Assembly: GCA_029100965.1 (NCBI GenBank)
Contig: JAQXQC010000088.1
Coordinates: 1-44,168, forward strand
Direction of reading: 5' to 3'
Length of the DNA stretch: 44,168 nt
From: Bacilli bacterium
GTDB lineage: Bacteria > Bacillota_I > Bacilli_A > RF39 > UBA660
Made by a program: the position numbers and the translations under genes. Under the pieces are notes generated by a model. It did no database searches and was not told the origin of the DNA. It worked only from the letters and a program-made list of their open reading frames with translations. Below, one piece after another: positions 21,079-27,411 of the stretch (the first letter of the stretch is position 1; each line of letters starts with the position of its first letter).

Positions 21079-21750
21079 TTATTCTATTATATATGGATCA
21101 CTATAAGTTCCACTTCCTTCAGTAACTTTAACTGTTGATCTTAGGCGTAAAACTGGACGAATTCCACTTGCATTAGATGATTGTATGCTTGAAACACTTG
21201 TTTCACTAGGACTCCAAAGAAATATTTGGGTAGTATTACCAAATACACTATTATTTTTTACATATTCTGGGGGAGTATGTGTGGCAAACCAATAATAACT
21301 TCCGTTATTGATTAAATCATTATTTTTGTAATTTTCAGGATTTTGAAGATCATTGTTATCAATTAAAGACATTCCAGTTATTTGCTGAAAATCTTCAATA
21401 TTGATATTCCGAGAATTATTATTATTACATTTACCTTCGTATGAGAAGTTAGAGTTACAATAATTTAAAGCCAGTGAATTTAAATTATTTAAGTGATTTA
21501 TGCTATTGGTAGTTGTATCATGAATTTGTGGATTACAACTAGTAAAGTGTTGAGTATTATTTTCTGTACATATACATTCAGGAGAACCAGCACTTATCAA
21601 ATAGACTGTTTGTTCTTTAATATAATCTATTCTCCAACCACTTGAACTATTTGCATTGCGACCATCACATAATTCACCTGAACATCCATTATTACCAGTA
21701 TATTTAACATAAGTGCCTTTTTTCTTTTTGTTCAAATAAGCACTATTATC
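21079..21750 (-). pseudogene. DUF6273/lectin-like domain; in-frame continuation of the upstream pilin beyond a TAA
   Basis: Same frame as 21751..22296; no RBS before TTG 21735; motifs GWRI, YYWFAT, GIRPVLRL...GSGTYSDPY. Confidence 0.55.
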
Positions 21751-21767
21751 TTAAGTGCTATTATCTT
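21738..21767. repeat. 15-bp imperfect tandem duplication spanning the pilin stop codon
   Basis: Minus strand AAGATAATAGCACTT AAGATAATAGTGCTT (13/15 identical). Confidence 0.85.
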
Positions 21768-22296
21768 CAATGAGTGTTTTTGCAGCAGTTTTTGCTAAGA
21801 GTTTGATGCTATAATCATCATTAGTGTACATTGATTCTAGTATAATTTTAATTGTTATTATATTTTCATTTTCGTTATTGATTTTTATTTCTTTAAATAA
21901 TAAAGATTTTTGTAAGTTTTTCTGATAGTAGGAACTGTCATTTTTGTCGAAAGAACCATCATTGTTAAGTTTTCCATATGTTATTGTTACTTCTTTATTT
22001 TCTGGATTATTGATTTGGATTTTTCTTTTTTCTTCTGTTCCGCTAGATTGGGTTGTTAAAATTACTTCATTATTTTCACTTTTTTCGATTTTGGTAATGA
22101 CTTGTTTATCTAAATCATTCATTATATTTTTAGTGATTGCTATTTTATCTGAGGAATAACTAATGGATTGATAGATATCCTCATCTTTATTTTTAAATTG
22201 ATAAATAAGATTTAATAGGTATAAGGCAATACTCATTGCTAATACTGATGCTAAAACAATTTCTACTAACATATATCCTTTTTTATTTAATTTCAT
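21751..22296 (-). CDS. Type IV prepilin-like protein
   Basis: Class III signal MKLNKKG|YMLVE followed by a hydrophobic helix; RBS GGGGGA. Confidence 0.85.
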   Translation of the reverse strand: MKLNKKGYMLVEIVLASVLAMSIALYLLNLIYQFKNKDEDIYQSISYSSDKIAITKNIMNDLDKQVITKIEKSENNEVILTTQSSGTEEKRKIQINNPENKEVTITYGKLNNDGSFDKNDSSYYQKNLQKSLLFKEIKINNENENIITIKIILESMYTNDDYSIKLLAKTAAKTLIEDNST

Positions 22297-22307
22297 TATT
22301 TATCCCC

Positions 22308-22853
22308 CTACTCGATTGGAATACTAGCATAATAATTTTTTTTATTATTTTCTATTTCTGTTATTACTATGTATGTGTAATGATTAGAATCTGTTCCAAC
22401 GTTGGCATCCTTAATGTTATAATAATTAACAATATAATCTATATAGTCTTTAAATGTTTCATTAGTTAAATCTATTTTCTTCTTTTCTAGAACATTTTCA
22501 TCATAATAAGTAAATATCATGTTTTTTATTTGATATAAATTTTGTAAAGTTGTACAAAAATTATTTTTATTGATATAATTACTTTCTTCAGAATTACAAT
22601 TGCCATCTTCAATTAGATTTATTGTTTCTTTATCGTTATGAGTATTGAGAAAGGTGTTTAAATTATTTTCTAACAATGTATTAATCATTTCTTTTGATGC
22701 ATAAAATGCATCAATATCATGATACACTTCTCTTTCTTTATATTTAGAAAAAAGAGAGTTAAAACTAGAATAAAATAAAATCATTCCTGTTAAAATTACT
22801 GTTGAAGTGATAATTACTTCTACTAACATGAAGCCTTTATTATTTTTAAACAT
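22308..22853 (-). CDS. Type IV prepilin-like protein
   Basis: Class III signal MFKNNKG|FMLVE followed by a hydrophobic helix. Confidence 0.85.
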   Translation of the reverse strand: MFKNNKGFMLVEVIITSTVILTGMILFYSSFNSLFSKYKEREVYHDIDAFYASKEMINTLLENNLNTFLNTHNDKETINLIEDGNCNSEESNYINKNNFCTTLQNLYQIKNMIFTYYDENVLEKKKIDLTNETFKDYIDYIVNYYNIKDANVGTDSNHYTYIVITEIENNKKNYYASIPIE

Positions 22854-22870
22854 TCTTTTTTCACTACTCC

Positions 22871-22899
22871 TTGCTATTTTTATAAAACTATTATATAAT
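22871..22899 (+). promoter_or_regulatory. sigma-A promoter of the pilus ATPase gene
   Basis: TTGCTA-N17-TATAAT. Confidence 0.55.
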
Positions 22900-22930
22900 A
22901 ATTATAGTTTAATGTAAAGAATAAAAAGGA

Positions 22931-24220
22931 ATGGGATTTATGGCAGAAATTAAGAAAGAAGAGTTATCTACTTCTAATGTAGGAGCGACTAATTTTAATG
23001 ATTTGGCAACGAAAAAGGTAATTAATTTTGAAACAACTCCAATTGTTGATATTGTAAATTATATCTTAGTAACTGCCTCTAAGAAAAATGCTAGTGATAT
23101 TCATTTTGATCCAGCTGATAATCATATGAAAGTTAGATTTCGTATTGATGGGAAACTAGATACTTTTATTATCGTTCCTAATACCGCTAAACAAAATTTA
23201 ATTGCTAGATTAAAGATTATGGCCGGAATGAATATTACAGAAACTCGTCTTCCACAAGATGGAGCAATTCGTACAGTAATTGAAGGGATTAGTTTGGATA
23301 TGCGTGTTTCTTCTCTTCCAACCAAACGGGGTGAAAAAATTGTTATTCGTATTATGGATTATTCGATGAGTTTAAAAGGGTTAGAGTCTTTATGTTTTAA
23401 TGATGTTAATTATAAAAAAATATTAAAGATGATTAGTGAACCAAATGGAATTATTTTAGTAACTGGGGCTACAGGTAGTGGTAAATCAACTACTGTTTAT
23501 TCTCTTTTACAAAGATTAAATACTGAGGATACAAATTTAATTACAGTAGAAGATCCTGTTGAAATGGAAATTGAAGGAATGAATCAGGTTCAAGTTAATA
23601 GTGAAATAGGACTTACTTTTGCTACTGTATTGAGAAGTATTTTGCGACAAGATCCTAATGTTATTATGATTGGGGAAATTCGTGATAGTGAAACTGCACA
23701 AATTGCAGTTCGGGCTTCCATTACTGGACATTTAGTTTTATCTACTATTCACACCAATAATAGTCTTTCTACTATTGAAAGATTATTAGATATGGATGTT
23801 GAACGATATTTACTAGCTAGTGCATTGGAAGGAATTATTTCTCAAAAGTTGGCAAGAAAGCTTTGCGATAAATGTAAAAGGCTAAGACCTACTAATAATT
23901 ATGAGAAAAATCTATTTAGAACTATTTTAGGGTTAGAAGTTAGTAAGGTATATGAACCTGTTGGTTGTCCAGAATGTAGTTTTGGATATAAGGGAAGAGT
24001 TGCTTTGCATGAAGTTCTTCTAATTAATCAGGATATAAGAGATGCTATTAGTAATAATGTTTCTAAAGAAGATTTGAGAAAATTGGTTTATAGTAAAGAT
24101 GTTATTACTATGGTACAAGATGGATTTTATAAGGTTCTTGCTGGTTTTACTACTATTACTGAAGTTTTAAAACTAATTGATTTAGATGATGAGATAGAAG
24201 AAAAAAAGAAATCTAATTAA
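22931..24220 (+). CDS. GspE/PilB family type IV pilus assembly ATPase
   Basis: ASDIHFDP, RLPQDG, Walker A GATGSGKST, TVEDPVE, LRQDPNVIMIGEIRD, TGHLVLSTIH, Zn motif CDKC...CPEC. Confidence 0.95.
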   Translation: MGFMAEIKKEELSTSNVGATNFNDLATKKVINFETTPIVDIVNYILVTASKKNASDIHFDPADNHMKVRFRIDGKLDTFIIVPNTAKQNLIARLKIMAGMNITETRLPQDGAIRTVIEGISLDMRVSSLPTKRGEKIVIRIMDYSMSLKGLESLCFNDVNYKKILKMISEPNGIILVTGATGSGKSTTVYSLLQRLNTEDTNLITVEDPVEMEIEGMNQVQVNSEIGLTFATVLRSILRQDPNVIMIGEIRDSETAQIAVRASITGHLVLSTIHTNNSLSTIERLLDMDVERYLLASALEGIISQKLARKLCDKCKRLRPTNNYEKNLFRTILGLEVSKVYEPVGCPECSFGYKGRVALHEVLLINQDIRDAISNNVSKEDLRKLVYSKDVITMVQDGFYKVLAGFTTITEVLKLIDLDDEIEEKKKSN

Positions 24221-24278: not shown

Positions 24279-24845
24279 CTATACATAGAGAAGATGTTTT
24301 TTACTTCTTCCTCGATTTGATTTTTCTTCTTGATTATGAGGTTGATATAAAACAACTTCTTTTTTGGTTAAACTCTTTTTTACATCAATTAACCTTTGAT
24401 TTTTGGATCCTCTAAAAATTACATCATAACTTTTTTGCTGGTAAATAAATTTTCCATCTACTAAAATGTCAATTTGTTTTAAAAATTCTAATATATCTAG
24501 ATTGGACTTAGATTTTTCTAATAGTTCTTCAAAGGTATATCCAGTATAACACCATACGTTTAAATTTTTTTGATGACAATACTTTGCTAAAATAGAACAA
24601 GCTAGGGGTTGTTCCATCGGATCTCCTCCTGAAAATGTAATTCCATCTTGTCCTTCTAGAGAATTTATTTTTCTTTTGATGTCCTCAATATCAATAAGAA
24701 ACCCATTCTGATAAGAGTGGGTTTCTGGATTGTGACAATAAGGACAATGATGAGGACAGCCTTGTGTCCAAATTACAGTACGGATACCTTCTCCATCCAC
24801 AATGCTATCTCTTTGTATCTCATCTGTTGCTAGCCTTATTTTCAT
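24279..24845 (-). CDS. nrdG: Anaerobic ribonucleotide reductase activating enzyme (radical SAM)
   Basis: DSIVDGEGIR, QGCPHHCPYCHNP (CxxxCxxC), GITFSGGDP, WCYTGY, FRGSKNQR. Confidence 0.96.
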   Translation of the reverse strand: MKIRLATDEIQRDSIVDGEGIRTVIWTQGCPHHCPYCHNPETHSYQNGFLIDIEDIKRKINSLEGQDGITFSGGDPMEQPLACSILAKYCHQKNLNVWCYTGYTFEELLEKSKSNLDILEFLKQIDILVDGKFIYQQKSYDVIFRGSKNQRLIDVKKSLTKKEVVLYQPHNQEEKSNRGRSKKHLLYV

Positions 24846-24847
24846 TA

Positions 24848-25024
24848 TTATTTCGCTTCTTCCAATATTCCTTCTGTACCGTGTTTTACGCGATCGTGTT
24901 CTTCTGCTCTTTTTCCGTTGTTGAAACGATCTACTGTTCCTACTAAATATCCTGTAATTCTTCTGATCCTTTCAAAGCCAATTCCCTCTCCGATAGTTTT
25001 AACTTCTTTTTCTTCTGTTTTCAT
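24848..25024 (-). CDS. 58-aa stand-alone glycyl-radical segment of class III ribonucleotide reductase
   Basis: Below the ORF-track cutoff. Hand translation: MKTEEKEVKTIGEGIGFERIRRITGYLVGTVDRFNNGKRAEEHDRVKHGTEGILEEAK*. RBS AAAGAGGGA lies 8 nt before the ATG; stop is 2 nt before the nrdG start. Confidence 0.9.
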   Translation of the reverse strand: MKTEEKEVKTIGEGIGFERIRRITGYLVGTVDRFNNGKRAEEHDRVKHGTEGILEEAK

Positions 25025-25050
25025 AAAAATATTCCCTCTTTCTTAATTTA

Positions 25051-27348
25051 TTAACAGCAAGCATTTTTCTTAAAGTCATTTACTTTTTCAACGCTAACCC
25101 CTTCTCCAGCTTTTCGGCCACATCCAGGACAAACATCTCCAATAATTCCAACATATCCACATACTGGATCTCGATCAACTGGATGATTAATTGCTGCATA
25201 TCCCATATTATTTTCTTTCATGATACGAACAATTTTTTCAAAAGCATCTAAATTTTTTGTTGTATCTCCATCTAATTCAATATAACTAATATGTCCAGCG
25301 TTTGTAAGAGCGTGGTATGGAGCTTCTTTTTTAATCTTATTAATGATAGATATATTATAATATACTGGTACATGGAATGAATTTGTATAATAGTCTCTAT
25401 CTGTAACTCCTTTAATTTTTCCGTAAATTACTTTATCAATATTAACAAATCTACCACTTAATCCTTCTGCTGGAGTAGCTAGGCATGTAAAGTTTAGATT
25501 ATATTTTTCCGAATATTCATCGCATTTTTTTCTCATGAAGCCAATAATTTTTAATCCTAATTCTTGTGCTTCATCACTTTCACCGTGGTGTTTTCCAATT
25601 AATGCTTTTAAACATTCTGCTAATCCGATAAAACCAATACTTAAAGTTCCATGTTTTAGTACTTTTCTTAATCGATCAGTTGGCTTTAATTTTTCTGAAT
25701 CAATCCATACTCCTTGTTCTAATAGGAATGGGAAATTATATAATCTTTTGTTGCATTGTATCTCAAATCTTTCTAGTAACTGCTCACAAACTAAATCCAT
25801 TAATTCTCCTAATTCCTTATAAAATCCATCTAAGTCTGCTTTTTCGTTACTAACAATTCCATGTTTGATTCCTAGTCTTGGTAGATTGATTGATGTGAAT
25901 GATAAATTTCCTCTTCCTGGGGTAATTGCTTTATTAGGGTCCACTATGTTACCAATTACTCTTGTTCTACATCCCATGTAGCAAACCTCTGTATTAAAAT
26001 CACCTTTATAATATTGTGCATTAAATGGAGAATCCATAAAGGAAAAGTTTGGAAACAACCTTTTTGCTGACACTTTGCAAGATAATTTGAATAAGTCATA
26101 ATTTGGATCTCCTGGATTGTAATTAACTCCTTCTTTAATTTTAAAGATAGAAATTGGAAAAATAGGTGTTTCGTTTTTTCCTAATCCAGCATCAACTGAT
26201 AATAGATAATTTTTCATTACCATTCTTCCTTCTGGTGAAGTATCTGTTCCAAAATTGATGGAAGAGAATGGTACTTGTGCTCCTGCTCTTGAATGCATGG
26301 TATTTAAATTATGTACAAAAGCTTCCATTGCTTGATAAGTAGCTCTATCCGTTTTTGCAATTGCAGTATCATATGCTTTTTCAAAAATTCTTCTTACTTC
26401 TTTACTTTCTTTATAAAAGTTTTCAAAGATTCCAATATCAACTGTAATAGAATTTAATTTATCAATTGCTTGTGCTACTTTATCTATATTTACAAAACTG
26501 ATAAAGTCCGTAAAATCAAGTAACTCATATAATGCTTGCTTATATTCTTTTTTAAAAGTTTTTAACACTCCTGGTGCCATATAAAAGTCAAATGCTGGAA
26601 TACTCTGACCCCCATGTTGATCATTTTGATTGGATTGTACAGCGATAGCAGCTAGAGCACTATAAGCATTAATTGATTGTGGCTCTCTCAAGTGACCATG
26701 TCCAGTAGAAAAACCATTTTTAAATAATTTATTTAAATCGATTTGCATACAAGTGGTTGTCCCCATTGCTAAGAAATCCATATCGTGAATATGAATATCT
26801 CCATTTTCATGCGCATCGGCAAATTTCTTTTTCATTAAATATGCTTTAGCAAATTCCTTTGAAACTGTTGAACCATATTGAAGCATCGTTCCCATAGCGC
26901 TATTTCCATCAATATTTGCGTTTTCTCTTTTTGCATCTTCTTCAAATGCAGATTTTAATCCTAATCCTTCTAGTGATTTTAAAAATTTGTGCATCTTTTT
27001 TTCGTCCGAAAATAATTTTCTTGATTTATCTCTTCTATCTCGGTAATCTGAAAATGCTTGGTAAACATCTTCATATTTGTTTTTCTTTAGCATTTCTTCG
27101 ATTAAATCTTGAATTTCTTCAATTTTGATTTTTTCGGCATCTTTATATTTTTTACAAATTTCTTTGATTACACTTTGATATACTTTTTGAACATCTTTAG
27201 CTGTATATTTTGCTTCTTCTTCTTCATGTACTGTTCCATCAAATCCTTTTTTTATTGCAATAGCAACTTTTGCTGTATCAAAAGAAACTTTTTTTCCATT
27301 TCTTTTTACTACCTTTAAATTGTCTATTACGTCTTCATTTATTGTCAT
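25051..27348 (-). CDS. nrdD: Anaerobic (class III) ribonucleoside-triphosphate reductase, large part with ATP cone, lacking the glycyl-radical motif
   Basis: VVKRNG ATP cone, KRENAN, HIHDMDF, QHGGQS, YMGCRT, GNLSFTSINLPR, TPAEGL, YYTNSFH, DRDPVCG...CPGCG; ends TAA TAA with no RxxGY. Confidence 0.95.
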   Translation of the reverse strand: MTINEDVIDNLKVVKRNGKKVSFDTAKVAIAIKKGFDGTVHEEEEAKYTAKDVQKVYQSVIKEICKKYKDAEKIKIEEIQDLIEEMLKKNKYEDVYQAFSDYRDRRDKSRKLFSDEKKMHKFLKSLEGLGLKSAFEEDAKRENANIDGNSAMGTMLQYGSTVSKEFAKAYLMKKKFADAHENGDIHIHDMDFLAMGTTTCMQIDLNKLFKNGFSTGHGHLREPQSINAYSALAAIAVQSNQNDQHGGQSIPAFDFYMAPGVLKTFKKEYKQALYELLDFTDFISFVNIDKVAQAIDKLNSITVDIGIFENFYKESKEVRRIFEKAYDTAIAKTDRATYQAMEAFVHNLNTMHSRAGAQVPFSSINFGTDTSPEGRMVMKNYLLSVDAGLGKNETPIFPISIFKIKEGVNYNPGDPNYDLFKLSCKVSAKRLFPNFSFMDSPFNAQYYKGDFNTEVCYMGCRTRVIGNIVDPNKAITPGRGNLSFTSINLPRLGIKHGIVSNEKADLDGFYKELGELMDLVCEQLLERFEIQCNKRLYNFPFLLEQGVWIDSEKLKPTDRLRKVLKHGTLSIGFIGLAECLKALIGKHHGESDEAQELGLKIIGFMRKKCDEYSEKYNLNFTCLATPAEGLSGRFVNIDKVIYGKIKGVTDRDYYTNSFHVPVYYNISIINKIKKEAPYHALTNAGHISYIELDGDTTKNLDAFEKIVRIMKENNMGYAAINHPVDRDPVCGYVGIIGDVCPGCGRKAGEGVSVEKVNDFKKNACC

Positions 27349-27381: not shown

Positions 27382-27411
27382 ATTATACATGTATCCTTCT
27401 TCTTTTGTCAA
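27382..27411 (-). promoter_or_regulatory. sigma-A promoter of the nrdD operon
   Basis: TTGACA-N18-TATAAT. Confidence 0.75.

Follow-up and report, generated by a model that had tools for sequence, protein, structure and literature searches.

A probable two-chain class III ribonucleotide reductase with the radical glycine encoded in a separate 58-residue open reading frame

The DNA analyzed here, referred to as the window, is a stretch of 44,168 nucleotides of contig JAQXQC010000088.1 from the genome of a Bacilli bacterium (assembly GCA_029100965.1). Three open reading frames (ORFs) follow one another closely on its minus strand: nrdD, which encodes the body of a ribonucleotide reductase of class III without its radical glycine, a small ORF of 58 residues that carries this glycine, and nrdG, which encodes the activase, a radical S-adenosylmethionine (radical-SAM) enzyme. 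The start of nrdG lies 2 nucleotides past the stop of the small ORF, and a consensus-type scan of the minus strand found no terminator-like sites between the three genes. The three genes probably constitute one operon for a two-chain class III ribonucleotide reductase. The features of the locus are as follows.

27382-27411, minus strand: promoter-like TTGACA-18-TATAAT, 5' of nrdD, 12 of 12 consensus positions (a consensus match only)
25051-27348 including the stop codon, minus strand: nrdD, large chain of 765 residues without the radical glycine (NF005497 and PF13597 profiles)
27025-27315, minus strand: ATP-cone, large-chain residues 12-108 (PF03477, E 1.2e-13)
25963-25980, minus strand: finger loop YMGCRT, residues 457-462, which holds the thiyl-radical cysteine (from the translation; invariant in the split set)
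25120-25161, minus strand: zinc-site region C730 ... C740-P-G-C743, on the large chain (invariant cysteines; solved relative)
25054-25113, minus strand: large-chain tail, residues 746-765, KAGEGVSVEKVNDFKKNACC, with a Cys pair at its end (collinear with the small chain)
25025-25050, minus strand: 26-nucleotide spacer, beginning with a second TAA and followed by the ribosome-binding site AAAGAGGGA at 25033-25041 (from the sequence)
24848-25024 including the stop codon, minus strand: small chain of 58 residues with radical Gly25, codon 24950-24952 (NF005497, PF13597)
24279-24845, minus strand: nrdG, radical-SAM activase of 188 residues (TIGR02491, 144.2 bits, cut-off 126.1)

The large chain matched NF005497 over positions 3-713 of 746 (1016.5 bits, cut-off 764) and PF13597 (NRDD) over positions 1-531 of 562 (632.9 bits, cut-off 26.2). 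It ends ...CPGCGRKAGEGVSVEKVNDFKKNACC, is closed by TAA TAA and has no RxxGY motif on the same polypeptide. The small ORF opens with ATG in a frame that differs from that of nrdD. Among the family profiles, its product matched PF13597 at 533-562 of 562 and NF005497 at 710-745 of 746 and had no other match, and the two ORFs together tile NF005497 without a gap (3-713 and 710-745). The small chain is composed of a variable leader rich in Lys and Glu, the radical loop GEGIGFERIRRITGY, a short helix and a tail, and the radical glycine is Gly25, within RITGY. The break is flanked on both sides by related motifs, GEGV on the large chain and GEGI on the small chain.

Much of this had been put forward in the original prediction, which was made from the letters of the DNA and its translations. 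The 765-residue NrdD with ATP-cone, YMGCRT loop, zinc region and double TAA stop but no RxxGY, the 26-nucleotide spacer with its ribosome-binding site, and the ATG of a 58-residue ORF in another frame were all found where it had placed them. The GEG(V/I) motif that it had noticed on both sides of the break is present and extends into a longer similarity between the large-chain tail and the small chain. The 58 residues do cover positions 710-745 of NF005497, including the radical glycine, as it had described, but are not the whole glycyl radical domain.

The small chain was compared with the genomes of related organisms. Among 41 close relatives, 25 genomes matched; in 20 of the 25 the match lay in frames of 58-76 residues, all from the same family. 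The other five had long frames and came from outside it: the order's second family accounted for one, and the remaining four belonged to other parts of the class. In a sample of 201 genomes of the order, 101 matched, 19 of them in frames of 454-983 residues and 82 in frames of 54-78 residues. The split that the original prediction had proposed to look for in related genomes is found in 82 of the 101 NrdD-bearing genomes sampled from the order. A subset of these 82 short-frame genomes provided 38 further split loci that were examined in detail. The upstream ORF was an NrdD ending just past the zinc site in all 38, and a GGAGG-like site preceded the ATG of each small ORF. The spacers ranged from 1 to 41 nucleotides, their lengths modulo 3 being 0, 1 and 2 in 9, 15 and 14 loci, respectively. 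In 37 of the 38 loci, a radical-SAM ORF started -26 to +14 nucleotides from the stop of the small ORF; in the one-chain loci, such an ORF lay directly 3' of nrdD in 22 of 22.

Selection was estimated as the pooled Nei-Gojobori ratio of nonsynonymous to synonymous substitution (dN/dS) for each part of the small chain. Over the 17 loci of the genus, the ratio was 0.028 for the core (GEG..VKH), compared to 0.39 for the leader and 0.47 for the tail; over all 57 distinct sequences the core gave 0.109. The core is under strong purifying selection; a dN/dS estimate was among the checks that the original prediction had suggested. With its conservation across genera, variable spacers and own ribosome-binding site, the break also bears out the earlier view of an evolved fission rather than an indel. 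The stretch is present in near-identical form in 16 public runs (at least half of the sampled words in each), and the runs that hold it number 20, from 14 studies, mostly of pig gut. An RNA-library contig of 169 nucleotides that matched 24859-25027 exactly is a weak hint of expression.

The genome that holds the window is a draft of 93 contigs, 95.7% complete, and in it no NRDD match was found beyond the split pair and no class I/II barrel (PF02867). The intact nrdD elsewhere in the genome that figured among the refuting conditions of the original prediction was not found in this assembly, nor was another reductase. The same genome has a pyruvate formate-lyase-like gene (G000 contig C13:21710-22033) with an ordinary one-chain frame of 754 residues and a complete PF01228, so that the split is confined to NrdD.

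The nearest solved enzyme is the NrdD of Prevotella copri (8p23). The deposited chain has 743 residues and that of the paper 739, and chain numbering was taken as that of the paper plus 4. In the part of the structural account that was available, the C-terminal domain is described as a structural zinc site followed by a buried loop with Gly711, a short helix and a surface tail. The same text describes the radical glycine as fully buried, activation as requiring a movement of the domain, and Tyr712 and Arg719 as the residues that link the radical domain to a flap over the active site and substrate. The large chain of the window aligned to residues 9-704 of the 8p23 chain and residues 17-49 of the small chain to residues 708-740; the cut was therefore placed inside the C-terminal domain. 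As judged from these alignments, it falls inside the radical domain, between the zinc site and the loop and about 7-11 residues before the glycine, with the large chain retaining the zinc half and the remaining elements (loop, helix, tail) forming the small chain.

In the 38 split loci, M458, G459, C460, R461 and T462 of the finger loop and C730, C740 and C743 of the zinc region were invariant in the large chains. Three cysteines are seen in the zinc region, which aligns to 8p23 through residue 704, and the place of the fourth is taken by Asp (DPVC). G25 and Y26 were invariant in the small chains, where Y26 is the counterpart of P. copri Tyr712 and R33, conserved in at least 90% of the 38 sequences, is that of Arg719.

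The split form is conserved, widespread and common among gut and rumen bacteria. Among 50%-identity representatives, 2056 matched the small chain at E <=0.001, and the best 150 were all of 54-136 residues. When proteins of 31-102 residues were searched, 7989 of the 8000 scored matched and the best 120 were 56-83 residues long; some of the 31-102-residue matches will be contig-end fragments. A scan of one genome per species gave at least 598 loci with a small-chain match, of which the best 80 were sorted. Of these 80, 58 were called by script as split beside a truncated nrdD, and five more (L111, L115, L140, L144 and L149) were assigned to this class by eye; they have longer spacers or GC-rich frames. 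Seven were one-chain, three were of the free-standing type described below, six had a small ORF with no nrdD within 1.5 kb upstream, and at one (L143) the high-GC upstream frame looked spurious by eye.

The matched records were titled as metagenome-assembled genomes (MAGs) of Bacilli or Tenericutes, with many Clostridia and with Fibrobacter, Desulfovibrio and Succinivibrionaceae; the split form itself was seen under the titles Clostridia, Fibrobacter and Desulfovibrio. Bacilli-type split loci also occurred under the titles Muribaculaceae, thaumarchaeote and Rickettsiales (L101, L120, L124, L128, L137 and L170), which are probably binning or labelling errors in MAGs and not the true range. At L131, L133, L134, L139, L152 and L172, in records titled Anaerovoracaceae, Succinivibrionaceae, Desulfovibrio and Deltaproteobacteria MAG, the small ORF encodes a short leader and a radical segment of the NrdD type, but nrdD is absent from the 1.5 kb upstream. 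A different kind of interruption, by TGA with 170-177 residues open, was seen in the NrdD frame of eight genomes (G316, G325, G385, G391, G433, G451, G469 and G517) that belong to one family of small single-contig genomes; these interruptions may fit a reading of TGA as Trp in that family.

The tail of the large chain bears on how the split arose. In one-chain relatives the sequence passes directly from the zinc site to the radical motif, as in ...CPGCGRTEADGVKFERIRRITGY. The large chain of the split form reads GEGVSVEKVN... at this same distance from the zinc site, the small chain has the corresponding loop given above, and the large-chain tails are collinear with GEGVxFERIRR of the small chain. 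The first 17 tail residues were scored against the small chain of the same locus (ungapped BLOSUM62) in 101 split loci, which are kin and not independent. The mean score was 16.9, compared to -9.2 for shuffled tails, and 96 of the 101 loci scored above 95% of their own tail shuffles. Records titled Clostridia or Fibrobacter have longer tails with the sequence EKLxELRKK[YF]PxMPxF, or in some cases EKLRKLGVY; from their sequence, such tails are recognizably decayed forms of ERIRRITGY.

Since both chains hold a copy of the ancestral junction, we infer that a duplicated radical segment gave rise to the split, the large-chain copy having then decayed. The segment past the zinc site would have been duplicated, after which the large-chain copy would have lost its glycine and become the new tail, and the other copy would have gained a start codon and a ribosome-binding site of its own. 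The tail has also acquired features that recur. A Cys pair (CC, CxC or CxxC) was present in the last 12 tail residues at 58 of the 101 split loci and at 29 of 39 in the family of the window. In the window the tail ends NACC (25054-25065), and at L018, L046 and L104 a Cys cluster was seen at the end of the small chain, besides or instead of that on the large-chain tail. The pair could be a metal clasp or a redox pair.

The radical segment was also found as a free protein in genomes where the minimal enzyme does not need it. When 400 genomes of the class were scored, 14 had a frame of 92-114 residues with an NrdD-type radical segment at a place apart from nrdD; these genomes belong to four families, none of them that of the window. 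In the same search, 13 of the 14 genomes also had a full-length NrdD-type match of 773-822 residues, and PF13597 confirmed a full-length NrdD in all five of those tested. At 13 loci that were examined (L083-L095), the free-standing proteins had 87-114 residues counted from the first start codon, and 12 of the 13 had 87-100. Examples, as ORFs called by script, are L091:2875-3147:+, L083:2961-3224:- and L093:2414-2701:-. A protein of this type is also present in a record of the cultured Ruminococcus flavefaciens FD-1 (L162). Each protein consists of an N-terminal part of 50 residues with no Pfam or NCBIfam match followed by positions 709-745 of the NrdD model, so that the breakpoint is the same as in the window. 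AlphaFold2 predicted a strand-helix-strand-strand fold for the N-terminal part with a predicted local distance difference test score (pLDDT) of about 80; the radical loop was of low confidence (mean 68.8).

The neighborhood of the free-standing gene was consistent in one family, in which it lies directly 3' of a desulfoferrodoxin-like gene of 122-127 residues at six of six loci (L087-L092). At L091, a family scan identified this neighbor (2505-2873:+) as a desulfoferrodoxin by PF01880, with a TIGR00320 score of 123 bits that is below the cut-off of 146.9; the other five were judged alike by eye. A Crp/Fnr-type regulator near the L091 gene was confirmed by Pfam, and similar neighbors of 222-243 residues, again judged by eye, are present at most of the six loci. 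A word-based search with the free-standing N-domain returned 10 proteins, too few to size the family. Phage copies of the free-standing protein amounted to three unannotated fragments from faecal samples in 50,697 records. In the Atlas, 91-residue clusters of this kind carry the automatic names 'hypothetical' or 'domain-containing protein'; some of their members are viral, and they are leads only.

Two further loci combine elements of both arrangements. At L135, in a record titled Bacillota bacterium, a full-length nrdD with its own radical motif has directly after it a 98-residue frame that belongs to the free-standing type; this arrangement may be a step on the way to the split. In the complete genome G321 (L096:1587-3833:-), a 748-residue NrdD ends ...GLERIPRINLESE without a radical glycine, with nrdG 3 nucleotides downstream. 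Its relative G264 (L097:1602-3956:-) has a full-length NrdD of 784 residues that reads ...GFERIRRITGY.... The free-standing protein is encoded 1.4 Mb away in G321, which also has a second NrdD of 732 residues that is of another type. The 748-residue NrdD reflects either a split whose parts are unlinked or a break of recent date.

There is good support for a functional class III reductase of two chains, which is very probably what the operon encodes. Because the genome was found to hold neither an intact nrdD nor another reductase, the two-chain enzyme is the only reading that allows de novo synthesis of deoxyribonucleotides. The large chain would provide the ATP-cone, the barrel of ten strands in which the thiyl-radical cysteine lies, and the putative zinc site; the small chain would contribute only the loop with the radical glycine and the short helix and tail that follow. 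This loop would enter the barrel beside Cys460 as the attached C-terminus does in a one-chain NrdD. NrdG would install the radical on Gly25, and catalysis would then proceed as in an ordinary NrdD.

Oxygen cleaves glycyl-radical enzymes at the radical glycine. In the two-chain enzyme the cut would strike a chain of 58 residues that could be remade and reloaded, and the 765-residue chain would be spared. It is plausible that a small chain damaged by oxygen could be replaced cheaply, and that the benefit of the split is that oxygen cleavage costs the small chain and not the whole enzyme is put at about even chances. A free small chain may, in addition, be easier for NrdG to reach. Free-standing proteins with this segment at their end in other genomes, some of them next to superoxide reductase, lend indirect support to activation and exchange of the small chain and to a saving after oxygen damage.

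Structure prediction was applied to the complex of the two chains. The score was 0.58, the best control gave 0.00, the runs shared at least 86% of their contacts, and the pLDDT of the partner was at least 66. The mark used was reached by 58 of 80 solved complexes and by 2 of 110 mismatched pairs; at scores of 0.60 or less, only 7 of those 80 reached it, together with both of the passing mismatches. Moreover, because one-chain NrdD structures have been solved, the pass may reflect memory of those structures. The prediction accordingly lends weak support to the complex.

Several considerations weigh against the two-chain enzyme with an exchangeable radical chain as set out above. The binding of the chains to each other, the activation by NrdG and the exchange of the small chain are all deduced, and the predicted complex is of a weak grade. 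The contig from the RNA library fails to span both ORFs, and DNA may be present in libraries of this kind; among the pieces listed, there was no contig that bridges the nrdD stop and the start of the small ORF, a result that neither confirms nor contradicts the junction. Because the small chain is obligatory in this genome, it is not a spare part in the sense known for pyruvate formate-lyase, discussed below. Furthermore, split and one-chain forms occur side by side in the family, and in some cases in one genus, without an evident ecological divide, a pattern that a selectively neutral fission would also produce; genera g29, g71 and g85 each contain both. A tree of the NrdD catalytic body with 61 rows requires five changes between the split and one-chain states, and an approximately unbiased (AU) test rejected a single clade of split forms with p 0.00012, a value weakened by the fact that the test was named after the tree had been seen. 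The five changes and the rejection by the AU test show that the history was not a simple single gain followed by retention.

A single origin of the split within the family was rejected on this basis (five changes; AU p 0.00012). Recombination of a 3' cassette was also rejected as the cause of the intermixing: trees of the two parts, columns 1-650 and 651-883, still need six and eight changes, the short C-terminal part-tree having little resolution. Candidate causes are re-fusion by deletion between the GEGV copies, transfer of the operon within the family, and error in the tree.

The possibility was considered that the fission is neutral, that is, that the two chains work as one and that the split became fixed by duplication and decay with no benefit and no oxygen-linked exchange. 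The coexistence of both forms in the same family and genera, the several transitions required on the tree and the AU rejection of one clade of split forms agree with this explanation, as does the decayed tail, duplication with complementary decay being a classic neutral route. However, most of the matching genomes in the family (82 of 101) have the split form, which is also present in records titled as several phyla. The new tail, moreover, has conserved features of its own, namely the Cys pair at 58 of 101 loci and EKLxELRKK[YF]PxMPxF, and free-standing copies of the segment adjoin superoxide reductase. A neutral fission is therefore regarded as unlikely, although it is the alternative that survives best.

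A second possibility is that the split serves activation, in which case the free 58-residue chain would be easier for NrdG to reach than a loop buried in the barrel. It would be charged off the enzyme and then delivered, and its dose would set the activity. The buried position of the glycine in the solved P. copri relative, whose domain must move according to the available part of that account, is compatible with such a role. So is the action of the pyruvate formate-lyase activase on YfiD as a free protein, as reported in the accessible portion of PMC8683613. The small ORF is also tightly coupled to nrdG, by 2 nucleotides in the window and by -26 to +14 nucleotides at 37 of 38 loci, but this coupling is not specific to the split because nrdG abuts nrdD just as closely in 22 of 22 one-chain operons. 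In addition, a radical carried by a free peptide would be unprotected and would not last long, and a role in activation as the reason for the split is considered quite improbable.

That a single chain is made by stop read-through or by frameshifting across the spacer is highly implausible. The two ORFs are close together, and nothing further speaks for it. In the window there are two consecutive TAA stops; the 38 loci have spacers of 1-41 nucleotides in all three moduli with no conserved slippery or read-through context, the modulo-0 cases have further in-frame stops (L004), and each small ORF is provided with a ribosome-binding site and an ATG of its own. The explanation was rejected on the variety of the spacers. 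A sequencing or assembly error or a recent pseudogene has next to no probability, for even though the source is a draft genome of 93 contigs, the same break is found in many independent assemblies, the stretch is near-identical in 16 runs, the small-chain core has a dN/dS of 0.028 and the split pair is the sole reductase found in the genome. A working enzyme of two separately translated chains thus remains the preferred interpretation.

Beyond the operon, the region 21079-24220 of the window contains three minus-strand ORFs with prepilin-like N-termini (KGFMLVE / KGYMLVE), read from their translations only. The same region has a plus-strand ORF of 429 residues with a Walker A motif that, from its translation only, resembles an ATPase of type II/IV secretion or competence.

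The split NrdD has not, to our knowledge, been described before. In the full-text literature that was searched, which leaves out most subscription journals and was available in part, neither a split NrdD nor a spare part for this enzyme was found to be described. The available part of a 2026 review knows such spare parts for formate lyases only, and that of a 2021 paper (PMC8683613) speculates that others may exist. The small ORFs themselves are present in public databases under automatic names, as the original prediction had suspected, and one Joint Genome Institute (JGI) name is 'anaerobic ribonucleoside-triphosphate reductase'. Annotation pipelines that expect one chain may label the large chain as truncated and overlook the small ORF or give it a wrong name.

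As far as the accessible sources go, the only known remedy for glycyl-radical enzymes cleaved by oxygen is GrcA/YfiD, which serves pyruvate formate-lyase. An NrdD with a separate 58-residue radical loop is a candidate for a second class of spare part, this time of an essential enzyme. If this is true, repair by spare part would extend from pyruvate formate-lyase to the synthesis of DNA precursors, and the split form would be an end point at which the parent chain has given up its own copy of the radical segment. The separate piece also offers an experimental handle, since it can be produced separately for labelling, mutation and titration. The access of the activase to the buried glycine, the entry of the loop into the barrel and the exchange of the small chain could all be tested in this way.

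Among known systems, the closest is the one-chain NrdD with its NrdG, as in P. copri (8p23), phage T4 (1h78/1h79) and Thermotoga maritima (4coi), which belongs to the same families (NF005497, PF13597 and ATP-cone). The split enzyme shares with it the finger loop, a putative zinc site, RITGY with the helix and tail that follow, and the adjoining activase gene. It differs in that the chain is cut, with a new tail on the large chain and a new leader on the small chain. A split reductase of another class is NrdJa/NrdJb of Pseudomonas aeruginosa (PMC9669993, citing Crona et al. 2015), in which, according to the part of the text available, the C-terminal part is likewise a chain of its own, encoded 3' of the catalytic barrel. 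However, NrdJa/NrdJb is of the B12-dependent class, and the detached part is a folded IscU-like and zinc-finger segment with a reducing cysteine pair, not a radical loop.

The comparison that the original prediction had drawn with GrcA stands as one between analogues. GrcA/YfiD of E. coli and Y06I of phage T4 are described, in the accessible portions of PMC8683613 and PMC13450708, as autonomous glycyl radical cofactors for pyruvate formate-lyase. The small chain resembles them in being a separate small protein with the radical glycine that would use the activase of the parent enzyme and complete the active site in trans, as these sources relate for the cofactors. The likeness does not extend to kinship: GrcA is related to the C-terminus of pyruvate formate-lyase (PF01228), whereas the small chain matches NRDD (PF13597) only. 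GrcA coexists with an intact pyruvate formate-lyase, which it backs up after oxygen cleavage, whereas here the parent chain is without the radical segment and the small chain is obligatory. The free-standing proteins, by analogy, are candidate spare parts of NrdD and closer counterparts of GrcA than is the small chain. Tentatively, and at somewhat less than even chances, the small chains of the split form and the free-standing proteins may, in many gut and rumen anaerobes, be obligatory and back-up versions, respectively, of one kind of radical 'cartridge' that is charged by NrdG and taken up by the catalytic chain.

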